From an uncultured Gemmatimonadota bacterium (GTDB lineage: Bacteria; Blakebacterota; Blakebacteria; Blakebacterales; Blakebacteraceae), in NCBI GenBank assembly GCA_964637695.1, contig CAZWVF010000003.1, forward strand, positions 14,838-78,837: a stretch of 64,000 nt of DNA, written 5' to 3'. Numbering within the stretch: position 1 is the stretch's first letter; each line of letters begins with the position of its first letter. The translations under genes and the position numbers were made by a program. Positions 29,378 to 58,949 of the stretch are shown here, one piece after another. The notes beneath the pieces were generated by a model. That model searched no databases. It was not told where the DNA came from and worked only from the letters and a program-made list of their open reading frames with translations.

Positions 29378-31660
29378 CTATTGATTGTCCAGGACTTCTC
29401 TAACCTTCTGCCCCAGTTGTCTGGATGTAAAAGGTTTGGGAAGGAAGTTCCCTTTTTCAGAAATACCGTTTATCTGTTTTATAATATCTCCGGTGTATCC
29501 GCTCATGTATAGAACAGGTGTTTCCGGCATGGCCTCGTTGATTTGATTGGCGAGTTCTTTCCCGTTCATGCCGGGCATTACTACGTCTGTCAAAACAAGG
29601 TCAATTCCACTTTTACCAGACTCAACGAACTTGAGTGCTTCCTCCGGGTGACTGAAGCTCTCGACTGAATAACCAAGACCTGTCAGCACATCAACTGCCA
29701 GCTGGAGAACATCTTTTTCATCTTCGATCAGGAGTATCCTTTCATGACCTGAAGGTACGGCGTTACTTTTGACATCACCGACGGAAGGTTCAACATCTCC
29801 AGATGCCACAGGCAGATAGACTTTGAAAGTAGTACCCAATCCCTCTTCGCTATAAACATGGATCGAACCATTATGCTGGTTGACGATCCCATACACAGTT
29901 GCCAGACCCAGGCCGGTTCCCTCTGATTTTGTCGTAAAGAAGGGTTCGAAGATCTTCGCCTTTGTCTCGGCATCCATACCACACCCGGTATCCGAAACGC
30001 TGAGCATTACATATGAACCCTCTTCAAGATCAGGCCGTAAATGCGTGTAATCACTTTCGAGAAGTACCTGATCCATTGAGATTGCCAGAACACCGCCGTT
30101 TGGCATGGCATCCCTTGCGTTCACAACCAGGTTCATCAAAACCTGTTCTATCTGTCCGGGATCCGCGATTACAGGTCCGATATTCTCCTCGAGCTTGAGA
30201 GAGAACTCAATGTCCTCTCCAATCACCCTGCAAAGCATTTTTTCGATCTGGGACAGTATTTCATTCAGATTCACCAGTTGCCGCTCGGTGATCTCCTTTC
30301 TGCTGAAAGCGAGCAACTGACGAGTCAGAGTGGCTGCACTCGAGGAGGCTCTTGCGACTGTCTCCAGCTTCTCTCTCACAGGGTGATCATCCTCGATGGT
30401 CATAAGAGTCAGATCGAGGTTTCCCTTGATCACCGTCAGCAGATTATTGAAATCGTGTGCCACACCCCCAGCCAATCTGCCAATCGCCTCCATTTTCTGG
30501 GATTGGCGAAACTGCTCTTCCATGATTATCTGGTCGGTGATGTCGTGCACTGTTCCCACAGACCGGATTGTCCTGCCCGATGCATCCCTGATTTCCTCAC
30601 TCATCTCACGGACGTATCGCACTTCGCCATCCGGCCTTACGATCCGGTGCACAACATCATACGGAGTGTTGTTTTCAACAGAGTCGGTATATGCCTTATC
30701 AACAAATTCCCTGTCATCAGGATGGATGGTATCCAGGAAAGCCTCGTAGGTAGCCCCGAATTCCTGAGGCTGCAGGCCAAATATCCTGTAGATTTCATCG
30801 GACCATGTAAGGACGTTTCTTTCCAGGTTCAGCTCCCAGCTTCCCAGATGGGTTAAGCGCTGTGCTTCAGCAAGACTTCTCTGGCTGAGGCTCAGTTCAA
30901 CCTCGGTTTCCTTTCTTTCACGGATTCGACGGACCAGACGGGTCGTTGCACAGGTCAATCCAATAAGGCCAAGTGCCCAGAACAGCAGATGACCTATCCA
31001 GAAAGATTGAATATTCCGGCCTGCTATGGTACGGTACGGCGCCATCGGCACTGAGACGCTTATACCGCCTCTGGCATCGCCGATTGCATAGCCCTGTTGA
31101 GCATGGCACTTCAGGCAGCTCTCTTCAACGATCATGACATTCATGAATCGAAGGTATTCTTCACCGTTGAGTGAATTGATTTCACTGAATTCGGTTTCGC
31201 CTCCTTCAAACAGATTAAGTGCCCGGCGCTCCCACGGATCGGGATCGTTACCGGGACGAATTGGATTGAGACTGGTAATGTGACCCTTTATACCATATTG
31301 CCCTTCACTCAGTTCATGGACCTGCCGCGTCATATAGGCTGGATTGAGAAGTGTCAGCTTTTTCCCCGAAGGAGATGTAATGTCACGCTCCTCGATGTCT
31401 GCAAGGAAAGGATTCGGAGGGTATAGATCAGAAACCGGCACGTACACTCCGCCATAGCTGGAAGCCCACGTCCGATAGGCGAGATCTTTGTTGTATGCAC
31501 CCCTGGCTTCAGAAAGTGCCAGGTCATGGATGCTCTTATTTACCTGCCTGATATTCCACGCAAGAGAAATGCTGATCAGAATAGTCCAGAAGACAGCAAC
31601 AGCTGCAAAAATTGCCTTGAGATGGGAGTATCGGGTACCGTCTGTAGACATAGCCAACAT
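29378..31660 (-). CDS. hybrid sensor histidine kinase. It has two TM segments flanking a periplasmic sensor domain, then PAS, HisKA, HATPase_c and a C-terminal receiver domain.
   Basis: H-box AHDFNNLLTVIKGN, the N/G1/G2 boxes (LMNLVVNARDAM, DTGCGMD, GTGLGLATV), and the receiver RILLIEDEKDVL...VLTDVVMPGMNGKEL...LYMSGY. Confidence 0.85.
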   Translation of the reverse strand: MLAMSTDGTRYSHLKAIFAAVAVFWTILISISLAWNIRQVNKSIHDLALSEARGAYNKDLAYRTWASSYGGVYVPVSDLYPPNPFLADIEERDITSPSGKKLTLLNPAYMTRQVHELSEGQYGIKGHITSLNPIRPGNDPDPWERRALNLFEGGETEFSEINSLNGEEYLRFMNVMIVEESCLKCHAQQGYAIGDARGGISVSVPMAPYRTIAGRNIQSFWIGHLLFWALGLIGLTCATTRLVRRIRERKETEVELSLSQRSLAEAQRLTHLGSWELNLERNVLTWSDEIYRIFGLQPQEFGATYEAFLDTIHPDDREFVDKAYTDSVENNTPYDVVHRIVRPDGEVRYVREMSEEIRDASGRTIRSVGTVHDITDQIIMEEQFRQSQKMEAIGRLAGGVAHDFNNLLTVIKGNLDLTLMTIEDDHPVREKLETVARASSSAATLTRQLLAFSRKEITERQLVNLNEILSQIEKMLCRVIGEDIEFSLKLEENIGPVIADPGQIEQVLMNLVVNARDAMPNGGVLAISMDQVLLESDYTHLRPDLEEGSYVMLSVSDTGCGMDAETKAKIFEPFFTTKSEGTGLGLATVYGIVNQHNGSIHVYSEEGLGTTFKVYLPVASGDVEPSVGDVKSNAVPSGHERILLIEDEKDVLQLAVDVLTGLGYSVESFSHPEEALKFVESGKSGIDLVLTDVVMPGMNGKELANQINEAMPETPVLYMSGYTGDIIKQINGISEKGNFLPKPFTSRQLGQKVREVLDNQ

Positions 31661-31815: not shown

Positions 31816-33216
31816 TCAGCTGCCGGGGATTGTTTCATCTTCACGTATTTTCGGAGCGATCCCGATACCTGTGGCTGCGCAGATCAGTGCGAATAGAAAG
31901 CCGGTGTAATTCATGACCGCCCATGGAAGGTACTGGATGGTTGGTACACCAAGAGTGGCTGCCATGAACACACCGGCGGCGCTCCACGGGATCAGTGGAA
32001 CCACCACAGTTCCCGAATCCTCCGTTGTTCTGGACAGGTTCTTGGCGGCCAGATTCCGGCTCCTGAAGGCTGAGGAGAAGAGCTCCCCCGGAACAATAAT
32101 TGACAGGTAGCTCGAGCCGGTAACCAGGGCAGTGGTGATGCCGGTTGCCACTGTCGAAGCCACCAGGCCGAAGGTGGTTTTTATTCTGGTCATCAGAGCT
32201 TCCAGAATGCGGTCGAGCAGGCCGCAGTGGCTCATGATTCCCGCGAATCCAAATGCGCAGAACACGATCAGGGTAACATCCATCATCGCCATCATTCCGC
32301 CCCGGGCCAGAAGGCTGTCCAGCTCGGCAACGCCGGTGGAGGGCTGATAGCCCAGAACGGTCGATTCGAGTACAACCCTGAATGAAGCTCCCTGAAAGAG
32401 TACGGCGATGATCGCGGCAACGAGGCTGGCCAGGAGGATCCCGGGCAGGGTGGGGCGTTTCCTGATGGCGAACCAGAGGATGATCGCCAGTGGTGTCAGC
32501 AGAACCAGGTTGAACCTGAAAGAGCTGCGGAGACCTTCCTGGAGGGTTCCTACGTCCACAACAGCATCCGCCGAAATACCGAGACCTGCGATCAGATAGA
32601 CGATCAGGCCGAGCGTCCAGGCAGGTGCCGTGGTCCAGAGCATCCATCTGATATGGTCGAAGAGGTTCGCCCTGGCTATAATCGGAGCCAGGTTGGTTGT
32701 GTCGCTGAAGGGGCTCAGTTTGTCTCCGAAGTAGGCACCGGAGACCACCGCGCCGGCCGCAGCTCCCATGGGAACTCCCAGGCCCTGGGCTACTCCGATC
32801 AGGGCGACACCCACCGTTCCCACTGTTCCCCAGCTCGTACCTGTCGAAATGGAGATAATGGAACAGAGTATGCATGCTGTCACCAGGTAGAGACGGGGAG
32901 AGATCAGCTTGAGGCCGTATGAGACCAGCATTGGGATAGTACCGGCTGCAATCCAGGTGGATATGAGTGCGCCAACGGTGATCAGGATCATCACGGCGGG
33001 CATGGCCTTGCTGAGGGATGAGACGATCCCCTCTTCCATGTCGCGCCAGGTATATCCCAGGCGCAGAGATACGAATCCGGCTGCAGCCGCTGCTCCCAGC
33101 AGAACTACCTCTATGCGGTATCCAAGCCAGGCGTAACCGACACTCAGCAGGATCGCCATGATAACCAGAGGTGTCAGCGCCTCCACCAGTGTCGGTTTGC
33201 GAGTTTCACTCTTCAT
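31816..33216 (-). CDS. NhaC-family Na+/H+ antiporter
   Basis: Polytopic membrane protein. GTSWGTVGTVGVALIGV and SGAYFGDKLSPFSDTTNLA are NhaC family signatures. A paralogue lies at 57546..58949. The minus-strand ORF 31841..32875 is an alternate-frame artefact. Confidence 0.8.
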   Translation of the reverse strand: MKSETRKPTLVEALTPLVIMAILLSVGYAWLGYRIEVVLLGAAAAAGFVSLRLGYTWRDMEEGIVSSLSKAMPAVMILITVGALISTWIAAGTIPMLVSYGLKLISPRLYLVTACILCSIISISTGTSWGTVGTVGVALIGVAQGLGVPMGAAAGAVVSGAYFGDKLSPFSDTTNLAPIIARANLFDHIRWMLWTTAPAWTLGLIVYLIAGLGISADAVVDVGTLQEGLRSSFRFNLVLLTPLAIILWFAIRKRPTLPGILLASLVAAIIAVLFQGASFRVVLESTVLGYQPSTGVAELDSLLARGGMMAMMDVTLIVFCAFGFAGIMSHCGLLDRILEALMTRIKTTFGLVASTVATGITTALVTGSSYLSIIVPGELFSSAFRSRNLAAKNLSRTTEDSGTVVVPLIPWSAAGVFMAATLGVPTIQYLPWAVMNYTGFLFALICAATGIGIAPKIREDETIPGS

Positions 33217-35182: not shown

Positions 35183-38100
35183 CTAACGTCCGGGAGGAAT
35201 GGGGCGGGCAAGGGCCGCCATCGTGAACATCGAGGGATCGGGCTCCTGTGCAAAGGTGATCTCTGTCATCTCCATCAGTGTGCGTGAGTTCTTCACGTGG
35301 CTGACCATCTCGAACCTCATCGCAACAGTTCTGCCCTCGATTTCCTGAAAATCGCTTATATAAAGCGTCTTCAGGTGTTCACCTTCGTTGTAGTACTCGA
35401 TCTGCCTGGTAAGTGCATCTTCCACTCCCGCCCATAAAATGATGTAGTCGTACGATGGTCCATCGGGTGTGGGTGTGCATTTCAGCTTAACGCATTCCAC
35501 TCCCTCCAGTCGTTCGTAGCCCATGATCTCAGCAGTGTAATCTTCAGAGAAGTCTCCCGACGCCATATCCTCGTAAGAGAAATCTGAACCCTGAGCGCTC
35601 TGGCGGCGGGTGTGTCCGGCGAAATGACGTGTGAGATCGCGCCTCTTCATGTAGTACCAGATATCATCGCCGCCATTCAGCTGCAGGATCTTGTCTCCGG
35701 CCACACGCGCCGGTTCGACATAGGCCATCAGGCCCACGTCGCCTCCCTGGGCCGACCACGACCGGATCGTGAATGTGCGCTCGGCACCGGTAGAAGTTGT
35801 TATGGTCTGGCGTATTACACTATAGGAGTGATCGACTCGCTCGACATTTTCGATCCTCTCAATCCACCCGGCACCGGTCTCCTGCGCCCGAGATATCGAA
35901 GGGAGCAGGATGAGCAGGGCAAGAGAGAGCATGGCGGCAGTCGAAACCGGACTTGCCTTGAAATTACGTCCTCCGAGCAACTTCATGAGAGCCGGCAGGA
36001 ATACCACGGTTGTAATGAAGCAGGTTCCGACACCGAGCATGAGGACGATCCCGAAACTCGCCATGGCCACGTGAGGTATGAAACCGAGACTGCCGAATCC
36101 AATCATTGTCGTTAATGTAGTAAGCAGGATGGCCCGCCCGACGAATCGGAAGGAATTGTAAACCCGGTCGGAGCCCGCGGATGTATCCTCCTGGAACCGG
36201 TGAATAGCGTGAACGCCATCGTCGATTCCTATTCCGAGGATGACAGGTATCGCCATGAAGTTCATGAAGTTGTACTTCATGCCAATCAGATACATGATGC
36301 CCAGCATCATTACGGAGCCACCCAGAAGAGGCAGCAGTGACAGGAGTCCGACCGGTCCCCTGAAGGTGATCAGCAGGAGCACTACTATAACCGCAAAGGC
36401 GACGATCATGCCCTTGCGTCCATCCCGGCCCGATTCGGTCAGGTAATCGAGTGTGAGCTGAGCCGTGCCGCTGATACGGGGATCGACCTCCTCCATCTGT
36501 TCGCTGAACCTCTTCAGATTCGTCTGATGCCACAGATAATCACGGGCGGTTATATTGACCAGGAACTGTTCTGATCCGTCTCGCGGGAGCAGGCTCCTCT
36601 TAAGGACATCGGGCAGGTCATCAACACCGAACCGTTCGGTATTGCTCATCCGGATCAGGTTCTCCTTCATCCGGGCGTGCCAGCTGCTGCTGACAGCTGA
36701 GCTTATCTGCGGATCGATACCGGATTCCAGAAGTCGTACAAGCGTCGGCAGAACAGCATTATCATCAATCGTATTCGTATCGCTGTCGTAGCCGGTCAAC
36801 CGGTCAAGACTCCTTACAGCTCTGTCGAGACCACCGGTGAAGGCCAGATTGCTCATCAGGTCCAGATTATCTCCCAGCCTGCTGATCTCGGCAACCAGCT
36901 CTGCGTCGCTGGTGCCGGCCCGCCAGACGGGTGTTCTGGAACTCTCCGTCCGGGAGCGGAATGCATCCAGTCTGCCTGAATATTCTTCGAAACGGTCCTC
37001 TGTAGGCAGGAAATCGCTGATGGTCGACACCTCGCCGACCATTGACAGATTCTTGATACGTTTTTTCATTTCGCGGGCTTCTTCGATCGAATTGACGATC
37101 ACCCAGCCTCCTTCGGTCATCGACCCATATCGCTCCGGAATTTCCCGCTGGAGCCGGACGTTTTCCAGCCCTCTCGGTTCCAGGTTCAACCAGTCGAGTT
37201 CGAACTCGTTCTTCAGACCGGTCCAGAGTGAAACTCCGATCACAACCAGAAAGAAAACCAGAAACAGACCGGAATGACGCCAGCTGAGAGCTGCAATCTT
37301 TCCGATTACCGGAAAACCTTCACTCGCTCCAGGTACTGACGAGGTCTTACCTTTTCGTTCATGACGACGACTGCGCAGCACGAGAAGCGGTGGCAGAGTC
37401 AGAAATACTGCCAATAGAGTCAGGAAGAGGCCGGCTCCGATAGTGAACCCCAGCTCGCTGATACCTTTCGTCTCACCGACAATCAGGGCCAGGAATGCGG
37501 CGGCTGTGGTAAGCCCGCCGGCCAGCACTCCAACACCGGTTCCCGAGATTGTATAGATCAGAGATTCGCGGATCGAGTGACCGCGGCTCCTCTCTTCGTA
37601 ATACCGGGTGATCAGGTGAATTGCGAAGTCGATTCCAAGCCCCAGCAGTATTATCGCGAACATGGCCGTGAAGAGGTTCAGTTCTCCATATACTATCTCG
37701 AGGGTGGCAGCGGTCCATGTTATCCCGATGATAAGAGGCAGAAGAGCAACCAGCGGCAGCACCCACCCGCCGAAATTCCTGGCCAGCAGAAGATAGATGA
37801 GAACGAGAGCGACCAGCATCAGCACCGCACTGCTGGTTGTCATGGCGTCCATCTCCTCCTTCTGAAGAGGCCCGTTTCCGGTGAGTCCTATCTCGACATC
37901 CGGAAACTGCGGCCGCAGCTCAGCCAGGAGTTCCTGAACCTGGACGGTCATTTCCATCAGGGGATCGATCTCCAGGAGAGGATGGAGTGGAGTACAGAGG
38001 ATGAGCATCATCCCGCGATCGAGGCTCAGAGCCCATGGATCCCCTGCGATCATTGCATCAGCCGCCTCTTCGACGGAGGCGTAGTCTTCACCTGCAAATC

Positions 38101-38650
38101 GCGCCGCAAGGATCTCCAGCGAGCGCTCCATGCCGTGCATCGACTGAGCTATCTCCACCTCATCGTTACGCAGGTTCTCTTCACTGTCGGTATACTCCCG
38201 CTCGAAACTGTCATTGATACCACGCAGGATACCGACCAGAGAGGGATCGGAGAGCTGGTCGATTGTGCGGTCCAGGTCCTTCTCCTCAACCAGCATCAAT
38301 CCATGATCGATAAAGTAATCGAGAGGTATGGTGCCCTGGACGTTATAGAGGAGATCGAGAGCTTCCAGGCGCGGGATTATCACCTGGGCAGCCTCTACCA
38401 TCCTGTCCCTCTCACCTTCCAGCACTACCACCGTGTTCGCCTCACCAAAGCGTTCAGTTACTTCCAGGTATGATTGGACAGCCGGTGAATGCGCAGGAAG
38501 CATATCGACAACATTTGTCTTCATCTCGAGTCCCCGGGAGATGAATGCTGCGATAATGGTGATCACGATCACAGTGATCAGTATTCGCCAGGGGTGGTCG
38601 TCACTGATCCCTGCCAGCAGACCGCCGATGTTTTTCAATATCTTTCTCAT
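35183..38650 (-). CDS. MMPL/RND-superfamily exporter (two 6-TM bundles, HpnN-like) with a fused C-terminal LolA-like 'outer membrane lipoprotein-sorting' domain (~250 aa)
   Basis: 1155 aa. Two sterol-sensing-like TM blocks (GIDFAIHLITRYYEER..., GIGIDDGVHAIHRFQED...). After the last TM comes a soluble domain (SRAQETGAGWIERIENVERVDHSYSVIRQTITTSTGAERTFTIRSWSAQGG...YIILWAGVEDALTRQIEYYNE) of the LolA-like type that is usually encoded by a separate adjacent gene. Minus-strand ORFs 35964..36533 and 37473..37766 and plus-strand ORFs 35612..36115 and 37577..38473 are artefacts. Confidence 0.8.
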   Translation of the reverse strand: MRKILKNIGGLLAGISDDHPWRILITVIVITIIAAFISRGLEMKTNVVDMLPAHSPAVQSYLEVTERFGEANTVVVLEGERDRMVEAAQVIIPRLEALDLLYNVQGTIPLDYFIDHGLMLVEEKDLDRTIDQLSDPSLVGILRGINDSFEREYTDSEENLRNDEVEIAQSMHGMERSLEILAARFAGEDYASVEEAADAMIAGDPWALSLDRGMMLILCTPLHPLLEIDPLMEMTVQVQELLAELRPQFPDVEIGLTGNGPLQKEEMDAMTTSSAVLMLVALVLIYLLLARNFGGWVLPLVALLPLIIGITWTAATLEIVYGELNLFTAMFAIILLGLGIDFAIHLITRYYEERSRGHSIRESLIYTISGTGVGVLAGGLTTAAAFLALIVGETKGISELGFTIGAGLFLTLLAVFLTLPPLLVLRSRRHERKGKTSSVPGASEGFPVIGKIAALSWRHSGLFLVFFLVVIGVSLWTGLKNEFELDWLNLEPRGLENVRLQREIPERYGSMTEGGWVIVNSIEEAREMKKRIKNLSMVGEVSTISDFLPTEDRFEEYSGRLDAFRSRTESSRTPVWRAGTSDAELVAEISRLGDNLDLMSNLAFTGGLDRAVRSLDRLTGYDSDTNTIDDNAVLPTLVRLLESGIDPQISSAVSSSWHARMKENLIRMSNTERFGVDDLPDVLKRSLLPRDGSEQFLVNITARDYLWHQTNLKRFSEQMEEVDPRISGTAQLTLDYLTESGRDGRKGMIVAFAVIVVLLLITFRGPVGLLSLLPLLGGSVMMLGIMYLIGMKYNFMNFMAIPVILGIGIDDGVHAIHRFQEDTSAGSDRVYNSFRFVGRAILLTTLTTMIGFGSLGFIPHVAMASFGIVLMLGVGTCFITTVVFLPALMKLLGGRNFKASPVSTAAMLSLALLILLPSISRAQETGAGWIERIENVERVDHSYSVIRQTITTSTGAERTFTIRSWSAQGGDVGLMAYVEPARVAGDKILQLNGGDDIWYYMKRRDLTRHFAGHTRRQSAQGSDFSYEDMASGDFSEDYTAEIMGYERLEGVECVKLKCTPTPDGPSYDYIILWAGVEDALTRQIEYYNEGEHLKTLYISDFQEIEGRTVAMRFEMVSHVKNSRTLMEMTEITFAQEPDPSMFTMAALARPIPPGR

Positions 38651-39309
38651 GATCCCAGCCCTCCTTTGTCTTCCTCGTCTGCCTGCTTTTCTCTCTTTTC
38701 CAGAGCCTTCTTCAGGAAGTCGACAAAGGTCAGTGTGAAGCGTTCTCTTTCCGGTTTGTCCATCTCCTGCCAGTGTGCCCCCAGCCAGCGGTCGTGAACG
38801 CTGTCGAGGGCCATCAGCAGTTCCATCTCAAGTTCTTCGGGCAGATCTGTGCGCATTGCACCTGTCTCACGACCGTACCGGATCAGTCCCCTGACCCACT
38901 CCATTGCTTCGGTGAAAACCATACCCAGGTGCCCCGACTTGCGCATCTCTTCGGGCAGTTCCCAAACCGAGCGCCCGAAACCGAGCATCCAGGGATGGAT
39001 CTCCAGATCTACAAAGGGGTGGAGGTAAAGTTCTTCGATCTTCTCCCAGAAAGTTGCTGTGTTGAAGGCCGAGAGAGCGAATTGGGGTACGTCGATGAAC
39101 TGCAGCCAGTAGTGCCTGACTACCGTTGCGATAAGATCTTCCTTATCCTCGAAGTAGTAGTAGGCGGTTCCCTTGCTGATGCCGGCCCGCTCCAGGATCC
39201 TGTTCATGGAGGTTTTCTCATAGCCGTTGGCCGCGAATTCTTGTGCGGCAGCCTCCAGAATCAGTTTCTTCTTGTCTTTGGGCATCTTTTCGAATCGTGG
39301 CAGAGGCAT
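38647..39309 (-). CDS. TetR/AcrR-family regulator of the MMPL exporter operon
   Basis: KKKLILEAAAQEFAANGYEKTSMNRILERAGISKGTAYYYFEDKEDL is the HTH. AGGAG RBS 8 nt before the ATG at 39309. The stop overlaps the MMPL start (ATGA). The track ORF extends 90 nt upstream with no RBS. Confidence 0.8.
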   Translation of the reverse strand: MPLPRFEKMPKDKKKLILEAAAQEFAANGYEKTSMNRILERAGISKGTAYYYFEDKEDLIATVVRHYWLQFIDVPQFALSAFNTATFWEKIEELYLHPFVDLEIHPWMLGFGRSVWELPEEMRKSGHLGMVFTEAMEWVRGLIRYGRETGAMRTDLPEELEMELLMALDSVHDRWLGAHWQEMDKPERERFTLTFVDFLKKALEKREKQADEEDKGGLGS

Positions 39310-39614
39310 CTGAACGCTCCTCGTTTTTTCTTGCCTGTGCTCGTTTTTCCGTAGACCTGTCGGTGTATACGAACTGGTTATACTTAATGTTTCGACCACA
39401 TGGTTTATAATTATAATTCTGCTTCAGTCAAGATCAAAGAAGATTGCATCGGAGCTGTACAGGCAGTTCATAAATGATAATCCGTAGAATAACCGCTATC
39501 GGGAGAATATCTTGACATCGTCAACCGGTGGCATAAGATACCCATCGATCATACTTATCAAGCCGGAAGGAACATGCCATAGAAGACCTGGGCAGGAAGA
39601 TCGCTGAGAAGGGA

Positions 39615-50297: not shown

Positions 50298-51434
50298 CTA
50301 TTCCAGCACATGAATGTTCCGGGGCTCGCAGATATCCTTGAGAGCCCTGGGCCAGACAGTTACGCTCACCTCACCCAGATGGGCGGTACGGAGCAGGTAC
50401 ATGTAGGTTCGTGACTGACCGATGCCGCCACCAATGCTCAGCGGTATCTCATCATTCAGAATCGCCTGGTGGTAGGGCAGCTGCAGGAAGTCTTCCTGTC
50501 CCGACAGCTTCAACTGGACCTTCAGCGTGTCCCTGGTGACGCGAATGCCCATTGAAGTAAGTTCGTGCCGACGCCGTGTTACCGGATTCCAGACCAGGAT
50601 GTCACCGTTGAGGCCGTGGCACACTTCACCTTTATAATCCACGGTCTCGGTTACCCAGTCGTCGTAGTCAGCGGCACGCATTTCATGCGGATAACCGTCT
50701 TTCAGCACCCAGCCGATCCCGATGATGAAAATGGCGGGCGCAACTTCCGTGATCATTTTCGTCTCGCGCTGCTTTCTGGGCAGGTCGGGGTAGCGGTCCA
50801 GAATCTCCTCGGCATGAAAGAACTGGAGTTCCTCAGGGAAGTCGGGATACATGTCGGTCCGCAGTGCCGGAAACTGCTCCTGGGCGGACTTACCGGCGCC
50901 GTAGAGGACCTTCCATATCTTCCGGACCACATCCTTGAGGAAGTCGAGGTTACGATGCTCCTCGGTAATCGCCATCTCCCAGTCCCACTGGTCAACGTAT
51001 GCGGAGTGGTCGTGGTCCAGAAAATAATCCTTCCTCACGGCCTTCATGTCGGTGCAGATACCTTCACCAACAGCGCAATCGAACTGCTTGAGCGCCATAC
51101 GCTTCCACTTTGTTGCTGCCTGTACAACCTGCGCCTGAATCGGTGATTCAAGGCCGAGACCGCAGGGGAACTCAACCGGTGTTCTCGATCCGTCACGGTC
51201 GAGATAGTCATTTACTCCGCTGTCACGATCCACGATAAGAGGAACCTGAACCATGTGCAGATTCAGTTCCCTGCACAGGTTCTCCTCAATGTAGTTCTTC
51301 ATCGTAAAGAGAGCCTGCATGCGCTCAAGCGGTGTCTGCAGGGGCTCATAATCGTCGGGTAATATCCTAGCCACTTCCGGATAGGTGCTGATTCCTGGTC
51401 CAGCTAGATCTGCTGTCTTGTCTGTGTTTGCCAT
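50298..51434 (-). CDS. asnA: aspartate--ammonia ligase (asparagine synthetase A) with a ~30-aa N-terminal extension
   Basis: Collinear with E. coli AsnA along the whole length: ...YVDQWDWEMAITEE..., ...HAEEILDRYPDLPRKQRE..., GLNGDILVWNPV, LTSMGIRV, IGGGIGQSRTYMYLL. AAGGAG RBS 8 nt before the ATG at 51434. The track ORF extends to 51689 with no RBS. Confidence 0.85.
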   Translation of the reverse strand: MANTDKTADLAGPGISTYPEVARILPDDYEPLQTPLERMQALFTMKNYIEENLCRELNLHMVQVPLIVDRDSGVNDYLDRDGSRTPVEFPCGLGLESPIQAQVVQAATKWKRMALKQFDCAVGEGICTDMKAVRKDYFLDHDHSAYVDQWDWEMAITEEHRNLDFLKDVVRKIWKVLYGAGKSAQEQFPALRTDMYPDFPEELQFFHAEEILDRYPDLPRKQRETKMITEVAPAIFIIGIGWVLKDGYPHEMRAADYDDWVTETVDYKGEVCHGLNGDILVWNPVTRRRHELTSMGIRVTRDTLKVQLKLSGQEDFLQLPYHQAILNDEIPLSIGGGIGQSRTYMYLLRTAHLGEVSVTVWPRALKDICEPRNIHVLE

Positions 51435-51723
51435 CAATGAATCTCCTTTGAACTGCTCCTGCTCTCTTTTCAGGGGCGGGATGAATTCAGTCCCGCCCGG
51501 GTAATGATGTCCCCGCGATCGGAAAGCCTGTTGCCCTCCGACATCAGGGTGAACCCGAAAGGAATCGGGCAAAAATATCACGGCCAGGGAGAGAAGATCT
51601 TCTTCCAGAGGAATGAACGCGTATACATGAACGGAAATATATCGGGGGCTGCGGTTTTGTCCATCCCCATAAGCGACCGGAGATGGCACAATAACGCAAT
51701 CGGACGAACGGCCGTAATTTCAG

Positions 51724-52194
51724 CTATTCCAATCTCAGGCATTCCAGGGGATCGAGCCGCGATGCGCGGATTGCCGGGAGAAGAGTTGAGATCCCGGCAA
51801 TCAGCAGTATCAGGGTGGTTACTGAAATCAGTGTGATCGGATCAAATGGTGATATCTCATAGAGCTGGCTTCTGATAGTTTCCACCAGCAGCAGTGCAAT
51901 CAGCAATCCCGTCGCTGTTCCGAATAACGCCAGTCTTAAACCCTGTTTCAGTATCATCTGGATCAGGCTATTGCCCGATGCACCACAGGCCATTCTGACA
52001 CCGATCTCACGGATTCTCTCACCGACCATCTGAGACATGACTCCATAGATACCGAGAGAGGCCAGGGTGACGGCAAAAACAGCAAAGAGAACAAGCAGTA
52101 ACATAGTTGTTTTCCGGTCGCCGATCGAAGCTGCAATAAGATCCTCCATCACCGCAATATTCGCGACAGGTTGATTCTGATCCATGGAAAGCAC
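51724..52194 (-). pseudogene. remnant of an FtsX/MacB-type ABC-transporter permease (only the C-terminal TM2-TM4 block)
   Basis: ...LLVLFAVFAVTLASLGIYGVMSQMVGERIREIGVRMACGAS...LPAIRASRLDPLECLRLE is the conserved FtsX C-terminal domain. The N-terminal TM1 and the periplasmic domain (normally >250 aa upstream) are absent. No ATPase or partner gene is nearby. Confidence 0.6.
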
Positions 52195-52401
52195 AGTTCC
52201 CCGTAAGGCAGAAACAAATTCAAGGGGATCCGATTCCGTGCGATGGAACCTCCTCAGATTCTTGTTTTCCCTACAATGTCTATGAAAAAAGGGAACAGGA
52301 AGTTACATATTTCCCTGCAATGTACTGGAATAATATTTCTGCGGGATCAGTCACTGAAGCTTCTGGGTTTCGACAGTTGAGTTGGAGTAGGATACCTGAT
52401 A

Positions 52402-54072
52402 ATGGACAGATCGAATACCGGCATAACGAGCGATTTGAAGGTCTACGGCGATGGCTCTCCAGGGGGCAAGGGGATCGGCCTGATAATGATAAGTGAATGT
52501 TCCATCCCGCAGATCGAGAAAATCCAGACACGGATATTGAGTACTGCCTTCTACGACCACTTCCTGGGACGGGACAGGAGATTCACCGAAAAGGAGATGA
52601 ATACTATTCGAGCGGTTGTCGAAGAGCTGGACGATGGTCCGATCAGTGTCCGTTCTTCTGCCACCGATGAGGCCGGAGGTGAAGAGAGGGAGGGGGATCA
52701 TCTCCACGCCGGTGAATATCTTTCGTTCATGCTCCCGAATAATCAATCCGATCCCGAAGTGCGATTCCAGCAGGTACTCAAGGCAATAACATACATTTAC
52801 GATGATTTCATCGACAGGCAGACTACTTCCAGTTCCGAGAAGATGGCGATCATTATCAATCCAATCCCGGGTGTCTTCGATAATACCAATGCCGGACCCT
52901 GTTTCTACCCGTGCATCTCGGGCGTTGCGAATTCTTACTTTCCATATGCTCTCAAAACGCAGGATCCGAATGATGGATTCGCACGGATCGCTTTCGGGCA
53001 CGGCTACGCCGCCATTCTGGATGATTTCCCGATAGTCTCCATGGCGACCATAAGAGATCCCATCCCGCTCGAACTGCTCCAGAGCGGAAACCGTCAGCAG
53101 TATTTCTATGCGCTGAATATGGCTCGGGATTCGGAACTCACCGGTGATGAACTGGCTACCATGCAGATTCTGCACGCCCGGTTCGCCGACCAATCGGTTA
53201 TCCATTTGCTGGGAGTGAAGGAGAACCGGATTTCCCTGGAGAACCTCATCCGGGAGGATCATTTCAATTTCAGGACCACGCTGGTTGAGATAATGGAAGC
53301 GATCAAGGCACGCATTATTCCTCACTTCCAGATCGAATTCGTCTTCAACCTGGATCATTCAGAAAAGGATCCGCAGGAGGGTGTGTTCCACATCGTCCAG
53401 CTCACTCTCCTGCCGGAACTGCAACGGGATGCAGTCCAGATTCCATTGAATGCTGCAGATTCGCTCCTATCTATCACCAACTCCCAGGGACATGGCATAA
53501 CCAGGGGAATACGGTATGCTGTCGTGGTCTCGCCCTTTATCTATTCTCAGGAAATGAATGACGAAGTTCGACAGGGGATTGCAGAGATCAACAGCCGGAT
53601 GAAGGAGATGAATGAGCGCTATGTTCTGATCGTACCGGGTCGATTGGGCAGTGCCAACCGGGACTGGGGTATCTTTGTCCAGTACAGGGAGGTTAGCCAG
53701 GCCGCCGCCATTTTCGAATACGGTGTCGATATCGCAGGGCGGGAGGAACCATTGACGGAAAGAGACACTGTCACCGGCGGAATTTACGGAACCCATTTCC
53801 TATATTTGATTCAGGGCCGTCACGATGAGGAGAAGAAACGGATGCAGACCCGGATGTACGGCACTCAGGGTACCCATTTCCTCACCAACCTGGTGGCCAA
53901 CAATACCGTATACGGGTTCATCGCACCTGCCGAAGACTACCTCGATCCATGGTTCTTCACCTCGGTCAATCCCGGTGAACCAATCTCTCAACTGGAATTT
54001 CCCGTACCGGTGACAGTATATGCGGATTCAATCCGCCAGTTCTGCAAGGTGATCCCCGATCATGCCCACTGA
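52402..54072 (+). CDS. hypothetical protein with a PPDK_N-like (PEP-utilising enzyme, nucleotide-binding ATP-grasp) N-terminal domain
   Basis: The glycine-rich loop YGDGSPGGKGIGLIM resembles the GGK(G/A)xxL ATP-binding loop of the pyruvate-phosphate dikinase / PEP synthase N-domain. No swivel phospho-His domain is recognisable. 556 aa. The minus-strand ORF 52351..53358 is an antisense shadow. Confidence 0.5.
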   Translation: MDRSNTGITSDLKVYGDGSPGGKGIGLIMISECSIPQIEKIQTRILSTAFYDHFLGRDRRFTEKEMNTIRAVVEELDDGPISVRSSATDEAGGEEREGDHLHAGEYLSFMLPNNQSDPEVRFQQVLKAITYIYDDFIDRQTTSSSEKMAIIINPIPGVFDNTNAGPCFYPCISGVANSYFPYALKTQDPNDGFARIAFGHGYAAILDDFPIVSMATIRDPIPLELLQSGNRQQYFYALNMARDSELTGDELATMQILHARFADQSVIHLLGVKENRISLENLIREDHFNFRTTLVEIMEAIKARIIPHFQIEFVFNLDHSEKDPQEGVFHIVQLTLLPELQRDAVQIPLNAADSLLSITNSQGHGITRGIRYAVVVSPFIYSQEMNDEVRQGIAEINSRMKEMNERYVLIVPGRLGSANRDWGIFVQYREVSQAAAIFEYGVDIAGREEPLTERDTVTGGIYGTHFLYLIQGRHDEEKKRMQTRMYGTQGTHFLTNLVANNTVYGFIAPAEDYLDPWFFTSVNPGEPISQLEFPVPVTVYADSIRQFCKVIPDHAH

Positions 54073-55510
54073 GGAACAGAACAGGGAAAATCCCTTCGTC
54101 CCGCGGATAATAAATCCGATCAAGATCGACCATGCAGTTGTCTTTGCCGGAGAAACACTCATCCGGGATGCAGCACCGCTGCTGGTTGAGGATATGCCCT
54201 GGATAAAGATCGATGTCTGTCACGATCCCGGTACGGCTGCCCGGTTCGTTGCCGATGGTGCGGCAGTCTTCATCTTCGACGATACAGCTCTACCGCTGGT
54301 CGATACCGATACGATCCGTAAGAACAATCGTGATGCCGTAATCGTGCTGCTCTCTGCAAATCCCTATATCCAGTGCTCTCCTCCCGGACCCGCCCTTGAG
54401 AGATACCCCTACACGGGCAGGGCCGATCTCGTGTTTGCATACGATACAACCGAATGCGTTCCCCGCACCGTCATCACACCGGCGGTCAAAGCGGCCGAGG
54501 ACCTGATTAATATCCGGACCACATCCCTTGATGTCCGTCGTTTCATCTTCCTGGTGGTTGATGATGAACCGCGCTGGCTGTCTCAATTCCTGCCTGTTCT
54601 CCACAGTATCATCGCACAGCGTGCCGATGTCATGGTCACCCGCACTTACGAGGATACCCTGCAATTCCTTTTCGCAGCGGAAGATGAGTGTGAGATAGAT
54701 CCCGAGACCATGCGCAGGAGGGGGCAGGCCAGAGATGTCATCTTTCTGATCACCGATATCTTCTTCCCCCGCGGTGATGAGCCGGAGAGCGATGCCGGAC
54801 GCGACCTGATCCGCCTGGTAAATCAGTACTACCCCCGTATACCGATAGTAATAGCCTCAAAGGCTGAGGAGGCCGAGACCTTCAGGGACAGGGCATATCT
54901 GCTTCCCAAGGGAGATCCGGGCAGCCTTCAGGAGCTGTCCAACTACATCCGGGATTTCTCGGGAATGGGTGACTTCCTGATCAGGACCGGCAAAGGTGAA
55001 GTTCTTCACCGTATCAAGAACATCCATGGTCTCTATCAATTGGTTCTTGAAGCGGGAAAAGACACTCCGGAAGGACATGAACTGCGTGCGATTATCGAAA
55101 ATTACGCAGAAAAAGACAGGTTTTCCACCTGGCTCTACATGCACAGCTACCGGGAACTCGGTGACAAGCTCAGGCCGAGGCATACCAGGGGAAGGGAATT
55201 GATCTCTTTGTTGAAAGAGGACTTTGGAAAGCAGATAGACTGGCTGAAGTCTACTCCTTTGATAATCGATGGTATCAGAATCCATTCGATTTCAGATCTG
55301 CTGCATATGCTCCGCACCGCAGATAAAGAGGTCATCCAGCCGTTTTCCGATAATGATGTCCTCTCCTCATGGCTTGATCGGCAGGGGTATTCAGAGCTGG
55401 CCGAGGAATTGCGTCCAATCCACGGAAGCGGGGAAGAACTGACCCGTACTCTAATCTCAGTGATTGAGAAGTGGCAGGCATTCTACGAGAAAGATACCAA
55501 CTTACGTTAA
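54062..55510 (+). CDS. hypothetical signalling protein with two tandem receiver (REC)-like domains and a C-terminal ~180-aa domain of unknown function
   Basis: First REC-like: AVFIFDDTALPLVD...AVIVLLSANP. Second: RFIFLVVDDEPRWLS... DVIFLITDIFFPRGDEPESDAGRDLIRLVNQYYPRIPIVIASKAEE (D-x-x-F-P and S/T-K pattern). Its start overlaps the end of the upstream PPDK_N-like gene by 11 nt, so the two are probably co-translated. Confidence 0.5.
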   Translation: MPTEEQNRENPFVPRIINPIKIDHAVVFAGETLIRDAAPLLVEDMPWIKIDVCHDPGTAARFVADGAAVFIFDDTALPLVDTDTIRKNNRDAVIVLLSANPYIQCSPPGPALERYPYTGRADLVFAYDTTECVPRTVITPAVKAAEDLINIRTTSLDVRRFIFLVVDDEPRWLSQFLPVLHSIIAQRADVMVTRTYEDTLQFLFAAEDECEIDPETMRRRGQARDVIFLITDIFFPRGDEPESDAGRDLIRLVNQYYPRIPIVIASKAEEAETFRDRAYLLPKGDPGSLQELSNYIRDFSGMGDFLIRTGKGEVLHRIKNIHGLYQLVLEAGKDTPEGHELRAIIENYAEKDRFSTWLYMHSYRELGDKLRPRHTRGRELISLLKEDFGKQIDWLKSTPLIIDGIRIHSISDLLHMLRTADKEVIQPFSDNDVLSSWLDRQGYSELAEELRPIHGSGEELTRTLISVIEKWQAFYEKDTNLR

Positions 55511-55636
55511 TTGAGACTCAGAGTAAAAGTGACTGCCTGACGCTGCGTTGCAGATTGTCATTCGCCAATATTCCATCTGACGATATCATGCCTGGCACGC
55601 TGGCCGGTTTGCACGGATGGAAGCGGCAGTCGAGGG

Positions 55637-57298
55637 ATGGAGGAGCACATGACGGAGGAAGTCGTCGAGGCGGACGTTCTGTGTGTGGGAGGAGGGATCG
55701 CAGGTCTGATGGCCGCGATCCGGGCCGGAGAGTCGGGAGCGTCGGTGGTTGTCGTCGAGAAGGGTAATGTCCGCTACAGTGGATGCGGGCGTTCGGGAAA
55801 CGACCATTTCGAGGCCTATATTCCCGAGGTCCACGGATCCGATATTGACGAATTTATCGAAGAGCTGCTGAAGACCGCCAAGGGTGAGATCCTGCTGGGC
55901 AGGAACATCTTCAGGACCCAGTTCGCCAGGACGTTGAGTATCGTGAAGCTCTGGGACCAGTGGGGCATTCCCATGAAGTACCAGGGGGGGTGGGAATTTG
56001 CCGGTCACTCCTTCCCGGGACACAAGATGACCCATATCAAATACGAGGGAAGGTTTCAGAAGGAGGTACTGGTAAAGCAGGCGAAAGACCGGGGAGCAGT
56101 CATTCTGAACCGTGTAATGGTGTTTGATCTTCTGCGACATGGTGACCGCGTCATCGGTGCTCTCGGCGTCCATACGAGAGAGGAGAAGATTCTCCTGTTC
56201 AGGGCGAAGGCCGTGATCCTGGCGACCGGCAAATGCTCCAGGCTCTACCCGAGTCTGACCCCCGGGTGGATGTTCAACGATCCCCACGGAGGAGTGCAGT
56301 CGGGAGATGGTCGGGCCATGGCATATCGGGCTGGAGTCGAGCTGCAGAACGTGGAGATGCCCCAGCGTCACATTGGACCCAAGTACTTCACAAAGTTCGG
56401 ACAGGCCTCCTGGATAGGGGTAGTGAAGGATCCTCAGGGGGAGCCTGTCGGCGACTTTGTACAGAAGCCGGACCGGAAGTACGGGGACATGATTCTGGAG
56501 GCCAACAAGCTTGTAGCCGAGGAGTATCGGGCTGAGGGGAAGGGCCCTCTCTACATGGACTGCACCGGAATTACCGAAGAGGATTATAAGTACATGATGC
56601 ACTGGATGGAGCACGAGGGGAACATATCTCTCCTGGACCACATGAGAGAGGAGGGGATCGATATCCGCAGACACCCGATTGAGTTTTCAACCTATCCCCT
56701 CCGGGCGGGGGGATTGATCGTCGCCAATGAGAAGGCGGAGACGAATCTGGAAGGATTGTACTCCACAGGCGATGAATCTTTTGGAGACATCTCTGCTGCG
56801 GCAACTTTCGGCTGGATAGCGGGTGAAAATGCGGCACTTGCTTCCCAGGAGACGCAGGCCGGTGACATCGAAGTCGAGAGGCCGAAGATCGACGAGATGG
56901 GGAGCTTCATCGAGCAGCTCAGGGTAAGATCGCAGGGACCTGACTGGATTGAGACGAACATCGCTCTGCAGCAGGTGATGAACGACTACGCCGGTATGGT
57001 CCGTAATGGAGCATTGCTGGAGCAGGGCCTGAGCCACCTGAAGAGGGTCAGGGAGAAGGCCCGTTGCGAGTTGATCGCCAGAAATCCTCATGAGCTCTGG
57101 CGATGCCTGGAGGTTATCAACCTGCTTGAGATTGGTGAACTGGTCCTGCTCATGGCGCTCGATCGCAAGGAGACAAGAGGCCTTCATCGGCGTCCCGATT
57201 TTCCTGAAATGGATCCGATGCTGGACAAGGCTCATGTTGTGCACCTGATCGATGGCACGCCCAGAATCGAGTGGCGGAGCTATCAGGGAGGAAGATAA
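55637..57298 (+). CDS. FAD-dependent oxidoreductase of the succinate dehydrogenase / fumarate reductase / AprA flavoprotein family
   Basis: ADVLCVGGGIAGLMAAIRAGESGASVVVVEKGNVRYSGCGRSGNDH is an FAD dinucleotide fold with AprA/FrdA-like continuation. 553 aa. The start may be the second ATG at 55649 (GGAGG 5 nt upstream). The minus-strand ORF 55586..56674 is an antisense shadow. Confidence 0.75.
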   Translation: MEEHMTEEVVEADVLCVGGGIAGLMAAIRAGESGASVVVVEKGNVRYSGCGRSGNDHFEAYIPEVHGSDIDEFIEELLKTAKGEILLGRNIFRTQFARTLSIVKLWDQWGIPMKYQGGWEFAGHSFPGHKMTHIKYEGRFQKEVLVKQAKDRGAVILNRVMVFDLLRHGDRVIGALGVHTREEKILLFRAKAVILATGKCSRLYPSLTPGWMFNDPHGGVQSGDGRAMAYRAGVELQNVEMPQRHIGPKYFTKFGQASWIGVVKDPQGEPVGDFVQKPDRKYGDMILEANKLVAEEYRAEGKGPLYMDCTGITEEDYKYMMHWMEHEGNISLLDHMREEGIDIRRHPIEFSTYPLRAGGLIVANEKAETNLEGLYSTGDESFGDISAAATFGWIAGENAALASQETQAGDIEVERPKIDEMGSFIEQLRVRSQGPDWIETNIALQQVMNDYAGMVRNGALLEQGLSHLKRVREKARCELIARNPHELWRCLEVINLLEIGELVLLMALDRKETRGLHRRPDFPEMDPMLDKAHVVHLIDGTPRIEWRSYQGGR

Positions 57299-57545: not shown

Positions 57546-58949
57546 ATGAGACAAACGAAGGCCCCACCGGCGGAAGAGCGATCTCCCACATTCCCTGAAG
57601 CGGTTATCACGGTGGTAGTCATCGCCGTCACGATCATCGTCTGCCTGCCTCTGCAATCGGGCCTGCAGGCCGTATTCCTGCCGTTGACCCTGGGTGTGGG
57701 CGTTGTCGGGGTGCTGAACCTCATCCTCCGCAGGTCGTGGGGGGGCTTTCAAAGAGGCGTAATCGAAGGAGTCAGCAAGGTGAGCATCGCGATGCTCATC
57801 CTGCTGCTGATCGGTGCGCTCGTGGGGGTATGGATCCAGGGGGGAGTCATCCCGACTCTCATCTACTACGGCCTGCACATACTCTCACCTTCCTTTTTTC
57901 TCCCGGGTGCGTTTCTGGTCTGTCTGATCATTTCGATGGTCATGGGTACCTCCTTCGGCACAATCGGAACGGTGGGCATTGCCCTGATAGGCGTGTCGGT
58001 GGCCCTCGGAGTGCATGTACCCGCAACCGCGGGGGCTATTCTGAGCGGTGCGTATTTCGGCGACAAGATGTCACCCCTTTCGGATACAACCAACATCGCG
58101 TCCGCCGTGGGGGAGGTCGATATATTCCGCCATATCCACTCGATGATGTACACGACGGTCCCCGCCGGGATCATCACCTTCGTCCTTTTCTATTTCGCCG
58201 GACAACGTGCCCTCTCCGCGGATCTTACCCAGCTGCAGCCGATGCTGGAGGGAATCGGGAATTACTGGAACATCTCCCTGTTCCATATCGTCCCGATCGT
58301 GTTGATGCTGGGAATGGCACTCTGGAGAGTCGGTACGCTGCTGCTTCTGTTCATCAGTTTTGTCGTGGGGGCGGTCTGGGCAGTGGTTTTCCAGAACGCC
58401 TCTCTGACGTCGGTGTTCATCGTCGCTACGTCCGGCTTTCAAAGCGAATCCGGTGTCGCGAGTGTGGACCAGGTGTTGACGCGCGGGGGGATTACCTCCA
58501 TGCAGGCGGTGATAATCCTGATTCTTCTCGCGGGAGCCCTGGGTGGCGCCATGAAGGTCACCGGGGTGCTGGATGTTCTCGTAGATGGTCTGGCGCGGTG
58601 GATCAAGAGCACGGGGTCCCTCATTGTAGCGGTGCTCGTCTCGGCATATATCGTGATTCTGTTCACGGGCAATCAGGCGCTCGCCCTCATCCTGGTAGGC
58701 CAGGTTTTCCTGCCCGTTTTCAGGGAGCGGGGTATCGACAGTACCGTGCTCACACGATCGCTGGAAGACTCTGGAACGATTGCAGCTCCGCTGGTTCCCT
58801 GGGGAGTGGCCGGGGGAGTGTGCTCCGAACTGCTTGGTGTCCCCACAATCCAGTATCTGCCCTATATGTGGTTTGCATTTCTCGTGCCTGTTTTCTCGGT
58901 AGTCTATGGCTATACCGGATTTGCCGTATGGAAGGCGACGAACGATTGA
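57546..58949 (+). CDS. NhaC-family Na+/H+ antiporter (second paralogue)
   Basis: GTSFGTIGTVGIALIGV and SGAYFGDKMSPLSDTTNIA are collinear with the product of 31816..33216. The overlapping ORF 57737..58954 is a GC-rich alternate frame. Confidence 0.8.
   Translation: MRQTKAPPAEERSPTFPEAVITVVVIAVTIIVCLPLQSGLQAVFLPLTLGVGVVGVLNLILRRSWGGFQRGVIEGVSKVSIAMLILLLIGALVGVWIQGGVIPTLIYYGLHILSPSFFLPGAFLVCLIISMVMGTSFGTIGTVGIALIGVSVALGVHVPATAGAILSGAYFGDKMSPLSDTTNIASAVGEVDIFRHIHSMMYTTVPAGIITFVLFYFAGQRALSADLTQLQPMLEGIGNYWNISLFHIVPIVLMLGMALWRVGTLLLLFISFVVGAVWAVVFQNASLTSVFIVATSGFQSESGVASVDQVLTRGGITSMQAVIILILLAGALGGAMKVTGVLDVLVDGLARWIKSTGSLIVAVLVSAYIVILFTGNQALALILVGQVFLPVFRERGIDSTVLTRSLEDSGTIAAPLVPWGVAGGVCSELLGVPTIQYLPYMWFAFLVPVFSVVYGYTGFAVWKATND

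Follow-up and report, generated by a model that had tools for sequence, protein, structure and literature searches.

We analyzed a 64,000-nt stretch of DNA from an uncultured Gemmatimonadota bacterium (the window; contig CAZWVF010000003.1, positions 14,838 to 78,837 of the forward strand), focusing on a pair of overlapping genes, here called A and B. The region contains three open reading frames (ORFs), at 51724-52194 (-), 52402-54072 (+) and 54062-55510 (+), the last two of which are genes A and B. The ATG of gene B lies inside gene A and the two overlap by 11 nt, in agreement with an initial annotation that had described two overlapping genes of 556 and 482 amino acids (aa) and had read them as a pyruvate phosphate dikinase (PPDK)-like ATP-grasp protein coupled to a protein with tandem receiver-like domains. 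The features of the pair, all on the forward strand, are as follows:

52402-54072, +: gene A, 556 aa (ORF listing)
52402..53430, +: gene A residues 1-343, divergent PPDK_N-type ATP-grasp nucleotide-binding domain
52468-52470, 52651-52653, 53335-53337 and 53398-53400, +: gene A key residues K23, R84, E312 and Q333, respectively
53449..54072, +: gene A residues 350-556, swivel (phosphohistidine-carrier)-like fold
53794-53796, +: His465, in a family-specific insertion (residues ~442-490); invariant, duplicated motif
53875-53877, +: His492, the putative phospho-His, in GTQGTHFLTNL; invariant
54062-55510, +: gene B, 482 aa (ORF listing)
54062..54511, +: gene B N-terminus and receiver-like domain 1 (residues ~20-150), from the AlphaFold2 (AF2) model, conservation and comparison with a fusion family
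54539..54937, +: gene B receiver domain 2 (residues 160-292)
54560-54565, 54755-54757, 54857-54859 and 54908-54910, +: receiver 2 pocket, D167 and D168, D232, S266 and K283, respectively
54947..55510, +: gene B C-terminal domain (residues 296-482), with faint DUF5752 similarity

Proteins A and B each have >500 homologues at very low E-values, of constant length and 55-60% identical across phyla, and therefore neither gene is a chance ORF. To describe the pair across genomes we used a sample of 80 loci from a scan of one genome per species, spanning Gemmatimonadota, Aminicenantes and other Acidobacteriota, Zixibacteria, KSB1, Eisenbacteria, Zhuqueibacterota and others. The initial annotation had made its idea of a functional unit depend on the genes being neighbours elsewhere, and this is what we found: B directly follows A on the same strand in ~76 of the 80 loci, most often separated by -8 to +15 nt, while two loci are without B and the others are contig ends. 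One highly conserved copy of the pair is present per genome in many phyla.

No named Pfam or NCBIfam family covers window protein A, and the Pfam PPDK_N profile (PF01326) matches it only at E 0.13 (12 bits), under the cut-off of 27. The same profile matches 22 of 42 A orthologues at E ≤ 1 (best 1.5e-7), and the full length of an A-family profile aligns (490 columns, E 9.5e-35) to a PPDK_N-positive family of 584-aa proteins encoded next to A in other genomes, as well as to a family of 1064-aa proteins that combine PPDK_N with a nucleotidyltransferase (E 2.9e-12). These alignments uphold the PPDK-type assignment made in the initial annotation. The expected motifs are present in the sequence (G-G-K-G, V-R-S-S-A-T-x-E, I-E-F and V-Q-L-T), and K23, R84, E312 and Q333 are kept unchanged by 77-78 of 78 A orthologues from different species. 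K23 is the counterpart of Lys22 of rifampin phosphotransferase (RPH), which is essential (PMC4844700). Gene A is thus a divergent ATP-grasp protein of the phosphoenolpyruvate (PEP)-synthase/PPDK/RPH class, with an ATP-grasp fold homologous to that of PPDK, RPH and PEP synthase. One departure is the Arg of the Q-x-R motif, which is retained in the 584-aa and 1064-aa paralogues and in Escherichia coli PpsA and is an invariant Thr (T335) in A. Profile searches against Protein Data Bank sequences with A, B and the C-terminal domain shared among the paralogues gave nothing significant.

The C-terminal part of A (residues ~350-556) is common to all three paralogous families, which share an invariant G-R-x-G-S, one Glu, G-x-H-F and one Tyr. 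In A the corresponding motifs are PGRLGS and GTQGTHFLTNL, and His492 within the latter is kept in 78 of 78 orthologues. Based on the structural model, this domain is predicted to fold like the phosphohistidine swivel domain of PPDK. When family profiles were aligned to E. coli PpsA and PtsI with hhalign, matches fell only within the ATP-grasp domains of the 584-aa and 1064-aa paralogues and none involved the C-terminal domain, so that the swivel assignment stays fold-based. In an insertion at ~442-490 that is specific to the A family, the G-[ST]-H-F-L motif occurs again, with another invariant histidine, His465. The repeat is visible in the DNA: 53778-53801 and 53859-53882 form a direct repeat (19 of 24 nt identical) that encodes G-[ST]-H-F-L around His465 and His492, suggesting that the putative phospho-His loop was tandemly duplicated in the A family, with a single copy in the paralogues. 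Protein A ends right after the swivel-like domain, and no third, acceptor-binding domain (a PEP/pyruvate TIM barrel or a rifampin-binding domain) was found in it by Pfam, NCBIfam or structural matching.

This combination of features could also be expected if A were a catalytically altered or inactive protein that serves as scaffold or regulator for the 584-aa and 1064-aa PPDK_N paralogues, with B as adaptor. A is the most divergent of the three paralogues, its PPDK_N score is below threshold and its Q-x-R Arg has become an invariant Thr, and the A-specific insertion with the duplicated His motif could act as a pseudo-substrate. However, K23, R84, E312, Q333 and His492 are all invariant, which is unexpected for a dead enzyme, and about half of the loci have neither paralogue within 10 kb of A-B, as is true of the whole 64-kb window. 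We therefore regard a scaffold role as very improbable.

For gene B, the AF2 model agreed with the initial annotation in giving two tandem receiver-like domains and a C-terminal domain of no known function, the latter with sub-threshold DUF5752 similarity only. Domain 1 conserves D73, D74 and S98 and is probably a pseudo-receiver, since it is missing the acidic pair after strand 1 and the Lys. Domain 2 is, by structure comparison and model, a (beta-alpha)5 unit with the receiver fold and a complete phospho-acceptor pocket, D167, D168, D232, S266 and K283 being conserved in 66-68 of 68 B orthologues. The putative phospho-acceptor Asp, whose absence would have spoken against the initial annotation, is therefore present and conserved as D232. 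The receiver assignment holds by structure and residues and not by Pfam score: PF00072 gave no match for window B and matched 2 of 42 orthologues at E ≤ 1.

The remaining ~190 residues of B form a small beta unit followed by two helical repeats with the pattern F-S-x-W-L...Y-x-E-L-x-x-x-L-R-P-x-H. Pfam DUF5752 (PF19027) scores 13.5 bits against window B (cut-off 23), covering only profile positions 162-206 of 208, and is found at E ≤ 1 in 20 of 42 B orthologues (best 0.0027). When the C-terminal domain alone was searched against 1.84 billion representatives, 34 proteins were found, nearly all of them B-like and none providing a link to a characterised family. The first of the two repeats is common to a family of fusion proteins that combine receiver, DUF5752 and PPDK_N domains.

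These fusions, of ~990 aa (Response_reg + DUF5752 + PPDK_N), are encoded close to A-B in loci of the Zixibacteria type. B aligns with the first 400 residues of the fusions (E 1.2e-20) and A with the last 560 (E 3.2e-38). The fusions contain the same series of elements as A and B (a pseudo-receiver, a receiver with a pocket, a DUF5752-like repeat, an ATP-grasp domain and a C-terminal His domain) and have glutamate dehydrogenase, a histidine kinase, an NtrC-type regulator and a metallophosphoesterase in their neighbourhood. The first receiver has lost the acceptor Asp, and the second keeps the equivalents of D168, D232, S266 and K283 in 55-57 of 58 sequences; DUF5752 scores 18-21 bits. Unlike A and B, the fusions have a single DUF5752-like repeat, lack the insertion with the second His, keep the Q-x-R Arg and place the B-like part before the A-like part; at ~25% identity they are paralogues and not orthologues. 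The receiver thus stands upstream of the enzyme, in the order of classical response regulators.

Of 8,000 candidates scored in a search with one fusion, 7,824 proteins reached E ≤ 0.001, a total that includes PPDK_N proteins that are not fusions; all 120 matches listed were full-length and of fusion type. The best matches came from Zixibacteria, Planctomycetota, Deltaproteobacteria and Acidobacteriota (Geothrix, Holophaga, Vicinamibacterales), and cultured Geothrix and Holophaga are represented (for example, Geothrix sp. 21YS21S-2, CP132910.1). In the source records these proteins are named 'PEP/pyruvate-binding domain-containing protein', 'CheY-like' or, wrongly, 'histidine kinase'. A direct fusion of A then B was also seen, as a 1011-aa ORF (P0371) at L092:926-3961(+). 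Because it was found on one contig only, it may be an indel or frameshift, or an assembly artefact, at the normally overlapping stop and start. Taken together, the fusions indicate that the receiver module and the ATP-grasp/His module function jointly.

Clustering of all ORFs in the 80 loci gave the following counts:

A: 78 of 80 loci
B: 73 of 80 loci
Glutamate dehydrogenase: 34 of 80 loci
584-aa paralogue: 33 of 80 loci
Metallophosphoesterase: 28 of 80 loci
1064-aa sensor-PPDK_N-nucleotidyltransferase paralogue: 27 of 80 loci
PhoB-like regulator: 17 of 80 loci
Glutamate-synthase-like protein: 12 of 80 loci
NtrC-type regulator: 11 of 80 loci

In a separate tblastn count, a glutamate dehydrogenase homologue lay within 10 kb in 37 of the 80 loci and directly upstream of A in 7. 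Two arrangements illustrate the range of neighbourhoods. The Aminicenantes layout has A, B, a PhoB-like regulator and the phosphoesterase in a row, beside a convergent unit of glutamate dehydrogenase and the 584-aa and 1064-aa paralogues. The Zixibacteria-type layout runs glutamate dehydrogenase, histidine kinase, NtrC, A, B and phosphoesterase. A canonical sensor histidine kinase and an NtrC-type regulator are directly upstream of A-B in 7 loci, with the end of the NtrC gene 41-361 nt from A, and on further contigs the fused relative is divergent to a glutamate dehydrogenase-kinase-NtrC unit. These neighbourhoods point to glutamate and nitrogen metabolism. In the window itself, tblastn found no 584-aa or 1064-aa paralogue, metallophosphoesterase, PhoB-like regulator or glutamate dehydrogenase. 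As a side observation, the complete Zixibacteria genome LS998015.1 encodes a stand-alone 139-aa nucleotidyltransferase (L091:6223-6642(+)) that shares 67% identity with the 1064-aa paralogue's C-terminus and adjoins a metallophosphoesterase, a 128-aa single-domain receiver and a sensor kinase.

The interpretation we favor is that of a split response regulator made up of A and B: phosphorylation of B on D232 would control A, an ATP-driven His-phosphocarrier enzyme. We give this specific proposal about an even chance of being correct; a signalling role, as the initial annotation had suggested, is the best reading of the pair. B would be the control subunit, with Asp232 of receiver 2 phosphorylated most probably by a sensor histidine kinase; kinases of this kind adjoin the pair in some lineages, though not in the window. 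The C-terminal repeat domain of B would couple the receiver to A, with control running from receiver to enzyme. A would be the output, binding ATP via K23, R84, E312 and Q333 and loading a phosphoryl group onto its own His492 in the swivel-type domain, as RPH and PPDK do. By analogy with known dikinases, this may proceed through a pyrophosphoryl intermediate with release of AMP and phosphate. The swivel domain would then deliver the phosphoryl group to an acceptor outside A. Because A contains no acceptor-binding domain, the acceptor would probably be either another protein or a ligand bound by B. The nucleotidylation by A or B that the initial annotation had entertained found no support, as neither protein has a nucleotidyltransferase domain; in other genomes, such a domain is carried by a paralogue.

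Several observations weigh against a split response regulator of this kind. The swivel domain was assigned from a medium-confidence model (predicted local distance difference test score of 64) in which the insertion at 442-490 was unmodelled, and sequence and profile searches gave it no support, PEP-utilizers being undetected at the sequence level. Having lost the Q-x-R Arg, A may carry out chemistry that differs from that of a standard dikinase. In the literature searched we found no experimental study of any family member. Most A-B loci have no histidine kinase within 10 kb, and none adjoins the pair in the window, where the nearest is a hybrid kinase ~20 kb away:

29378-31660, -: hybrid sensor kinase (Tll0287-like, PAS, HisKA, HATPase_c and receiver domains), the only histidine kinase among the Pfam-scanned ORFs of the window

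Finally, the 1011-aa A-B fusion has the enzyme before the receiver, as in hybrid kinases.

In the main rival reading, the flow is reversed and A is itself the phosphodonor for B. The phosphoryl group would pass from ATP to His492 (and/or His465) and on to Asp232, with the C-terminal domain of B as output, making A a functional analogue of a histidine kinase on a different fold. A has an ATP-grasp domain and a His-carrier-like domain and no acceptor-binding domain, and B, to which it is translationally coupled, provides an intact Asp as acceptor. A kinase followed by its receiver is mimicked both by the gene order (A then B) and by the one A-B fusion. Furthermore, a PhoB-like regulator stands beside A-B in Aminicenantes-type clusters, and just 2 of the 17 loci that carry this regulator also encode a histidine kinase within 10 kb. 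Lastly, one type of N-terminal sensor domain (K-E-L-x-C-L-Y, G-W-Q-Y-P) is joined to a HisKA-HATPase core in 7 loci and to PPDK_N-His-nucleotidyltransferase (the 1064-aa paralogue) in 27, with a single locus having both kinds of protein (examples are L001:14774-17968(-), L051:6407-8539(+) and L091:7964-9700(-)), suggesting interchangeable transmitter cores. On the other hand, the abundant fused relatives have the receiver N-terminal to the enzyme, which is the normal order from input to output, and canonical kinases adjoin many related clusters; for these two reasons, direct phosphorylation of the Asp by A is less parsimonious. We also know of no demonstration of phosphotransfer from a PEP-utilizer-type His to a receiver Asp. 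Overall, we see direct relay from A to B as possible though unlikely.

The same observations can be extended to a broader joint claim. Here, the ATP-grasp and swivel-His modules of A and its paralogues would constitute a second type of autokinase, unrelated in structure, that feeds receivers (ATP to His492 to Asp232) and amounts to an analogue of histidine kinases assembled from parts of PEP synthase; the Aminicenantes-type sensor-PPDK_N-His-nucleotidyltransferase would replace the Zixibacteria-type sensor-HisKA-HATPase kinase; and this replacement would serve the kinase-less PhoB-like regulator together with B, controlling glutamate dehydrogenase and nitrogen metabolism. We hold this claim, taken as a whole, to be improbable.

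The association with glutamate dehydrogenase and glutamate-synthase-like genes is also what might be seen if the pair were a metabolic two-subunit dikinase acting on a small molecule or a polymer and resembling HpeHI or phenylphosphate synthase, both of them two-component small-molecule dikinases. B would then supply the acceptor-binding site, through its C-terminal repeats or pockets of the receiver fold, and the receiver Asp would bind metal or phosphate and have no part in signalling. The very high conservation across phyla at constant length resembles that of a housekeeping enzyme, split dikinases are known (HpeHI; PMC12167813) and HpeI is among the structural matches of A. In known split dikinases, however, the swivel goes with the substrate-binding subunit and not with the ATP-grasp subunit (PMC12167813), and B has no similarity to rifampin-binding or PEP/pyruvate-binding domains. 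The complete D-D/D/S/K pocket of receiver 2 is a requirement of phospho-Asp chemistry, and the sensor kinases and sigma-54 regulators that neighbour the pair point to signalling. We regard a metabolic dikinase as improbable.

We then considered the origin of the locus, for which the reverse-strand ORF beside gene A is relevant. The features upstream of the pair are:

51724..52242, -: ADOP/FtsX-family ABC permease remnant (ORF 51724-52194, 156 aa; in-frame homology to ~52242)
52195..52401, no strand: divergent intergenic region of 207 nt, GC 0.435, holding the permease truncation point

The 156-aa ORF matches Pfam FtsX (E 6e-16) and the duplicated ADOP permease profile TIGR03434, but only over positions 650-803 of 803, and three hydrophobic helices can be read from its sequence. 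Using a full-length ADOP permease from locus L082 as tblastn query, the match at 51727-52242 was limited to query residues 765-936, with no homology upstream of 52242 in any frame. Compared with a full-length duplicated permease (~800 residues), 51724-52194 is a gene fragment. The permease gene is truly shortened to its last ~155-173 residues, in line with the initial annotation, which had seen it cut to the last three transmembrane helices, and four other contigs of this organism carry the same remnant among identical neighbours. An antisense ORF of 335 aa overlapping gene A (52351-53358) was without permease homology and was treated as spurious. The promoter of A-B presumably lies within 52195-52401, where a simple scan of the + strand gave no promoter-like match. 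A regulatory RNA near the pair was considered and rejected: the sole Rfam match at E ≤ 1 in 51000-56500 was RAGATH-33, at chance level (20.8 bits against a gathering score of 120).

The initial annotation had taken the truncated permease as an acquisition scar and as support for horizontal origin, and had suggested defence as one role of the pair. As cargo of a mobile island or as an anti-phage system, A-B would account for the truncated gene at its side and for the fact that synteny outside A-B is not conserved between genomes, the window not being shared with other genomes beyond the pair. Nonetheless, no tRNA, integrase, insertion sequence element or meaningful flanking direct or inverted repeat was found near A-B, and the GC content of gene A (0.521) and gene B (0.527) is that of the surroundings (window mean 0.541). 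We thus rejected a mobile element: the truncation is a mark of rearrangement and carries no evidence on a horizontal origin of A-B. Defence was likewise rejected. A scan with PADLOC-DB of A, B, the paralogues and the fusion gave no match for A, B, the 584-aa paralogue or the fusion, and a pair that is 55-60% identical across phyla, in one copy per genome and amid nitrogen-related and regulatory genes (glutamate dehydrogenase, histidine kinase, NtrC-type regulator), does not resemble such cargo. Horizontally acquired defence or island cargo is accordingly hardly credible. Two weak PADLOC matches were recorded in other genomes, to PDC-S10 for a metallophosphoesterase (L001:13924-14781(+), E 2e-6) and to PDC-S09 for the nucleotidyltransferase tail of a 1064-aa-type protein (L001:14774-17968(-), E 3.5e-8); both are probably generic domain matches.

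The window genes flanking the locus encode an aspartate-ammonia ligase, a methyltransferase and an FAD protein with a ferredoxin. The two nearest are:

50298-51689, -: aspartate-ammonia ligase (AsnA) ORF, 463 aa from the first GTG (Pfam); the gene on identical contigs is 378 aa
55637-57525, directly downstream of B: 553-aa FAD_binding_2/Succ_DH_flav_C flavoprotein and an overlapping 84-aa ORF

The N-terminal ~85 residues of the AsnA ORF are probably untranslated, because the Pfam match begins at residue 125 and the gene is called at 378 aa on identical contigs. AsnA is a nitrogen-assimilation gene located 0.7 kb from A-B, which is possibly a coincidence. At the place of the 84-aa ORF, contig L004 has a 75-aa gene with weak matches to 4Fe-4S ferredoxin (Fer4); this flavoprotein/small-ORF pair is also found on L004 and lies beside A-B in no other locus. 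Elsewhere in the window, 35183-38650 (-) encodes a 1155-aa protein with MMPL/sterol-sensing transporter domains and a C-terminal LolA-like lipoprotein-carrier domain; a TetR-family gene (38647-39399) overlaps the start of this ORF. Two Na+/H+ antiporter-family (NhaC-type) paralogues, 38% identical, are located at 31816-33216 (-) and 57546-58949 (+).

Receiver domains and PEP-synthase-type dikinases are both well studied, and in the literature searched we found no description of their combination: no paper on a receiver-coupled PPDK_N enzyme, on DUF5752 or on the A-B gene pair, and no PPDK_N/His output for any response regulator. The parts of A-B are familiar; the combination is uncharacterised and is widespread in poorly studied phyla. 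Most of the lineages with A-B or the fusions are uncultured and are abundant in soils and sediments. If it is the receiver that controls the enzyme, as in the split response regulator that we favor, two-component signalling would gain a new class of enzymatic output and probably also a new step of covalent modification or phosphorylation connected with glutamate dehydrogenase. Should the enzyme instead phosphorylate the receiver, it would represent a new type of phosphodonor in such systems.

Finally, we compared A-B to known systems. The closest enzymes are RPH, PPDK and PEP synthase, of which RPH is the mechanistic template for His-swivel dikinases (PMC4844700). Like them, A has an N-terminal PPDK_N-type ATP-grasp domain, in which the Lys of GGKG, the Arg of VRSS and the E/Q metal ligands are present, and the model predicts a small domain of phosphohistidine-carrier fold with an invariant His at a helix start. 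Unlike them, it has no PEP/pyruvate TIM barrel or rifampin-binding domain, its Pfam PPDK_N score is below threshold, Thr stands in place of the Q-x-R Arg, a duplicated G-T-H-F-L serves as the His motif rather than G-G-x-T-S-H-A-A, and its partner is a receiver protein. A therefore has the fold and most of the residues of the dikinase family and departs from it in Pfam score, acceptor domain and one conserved Arg. In HpeHI, the ATP-grasp domain forms a subunit alone and the swivel is fused to the substrate-binding domain (PMC12167813). In A-B, by contrast, the ATP-grasp and swivel-like domains are together in A, and B consists of receivers and helical repeats with no similarity to HpeH-type substrate domains.

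On the signalling side, A-B can be set against response regulators with enzymatic output domains, such as those of the CheB, PleD/WspR and RpfG type. The likeness lies in a receiver with a full pocket, which is N-terminal to the enzyme in the fused relatives, and in a sensor kinase nearby in several lineages. The pair differs from these regulators in that input and output are separate, translationally coupled proteins, and in the additional pseudo-receiver and unique C-terminal domain of B. A further comparison is EI-Ntr (PtsP) of the nitrogen phosphotransferase system, in which a sensor domain and an autophosphorylating His-swivel module report nitrogen and carbon status; EI-Ntr uses PEP via a TIM-barrel domain and passes the phosphate to HPr-like proteins. 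The A-B clusters may be likened to it in having sensor domains, His-swivel-like modules and linked glutamate dehydrogenase, an analogy without homology beyond the fold. The proteins of these clusters differ from EI-Ntr in carrying an ATP-grasp domain in place of the PEP-using TIM barrel and in standing beside receiver domains.

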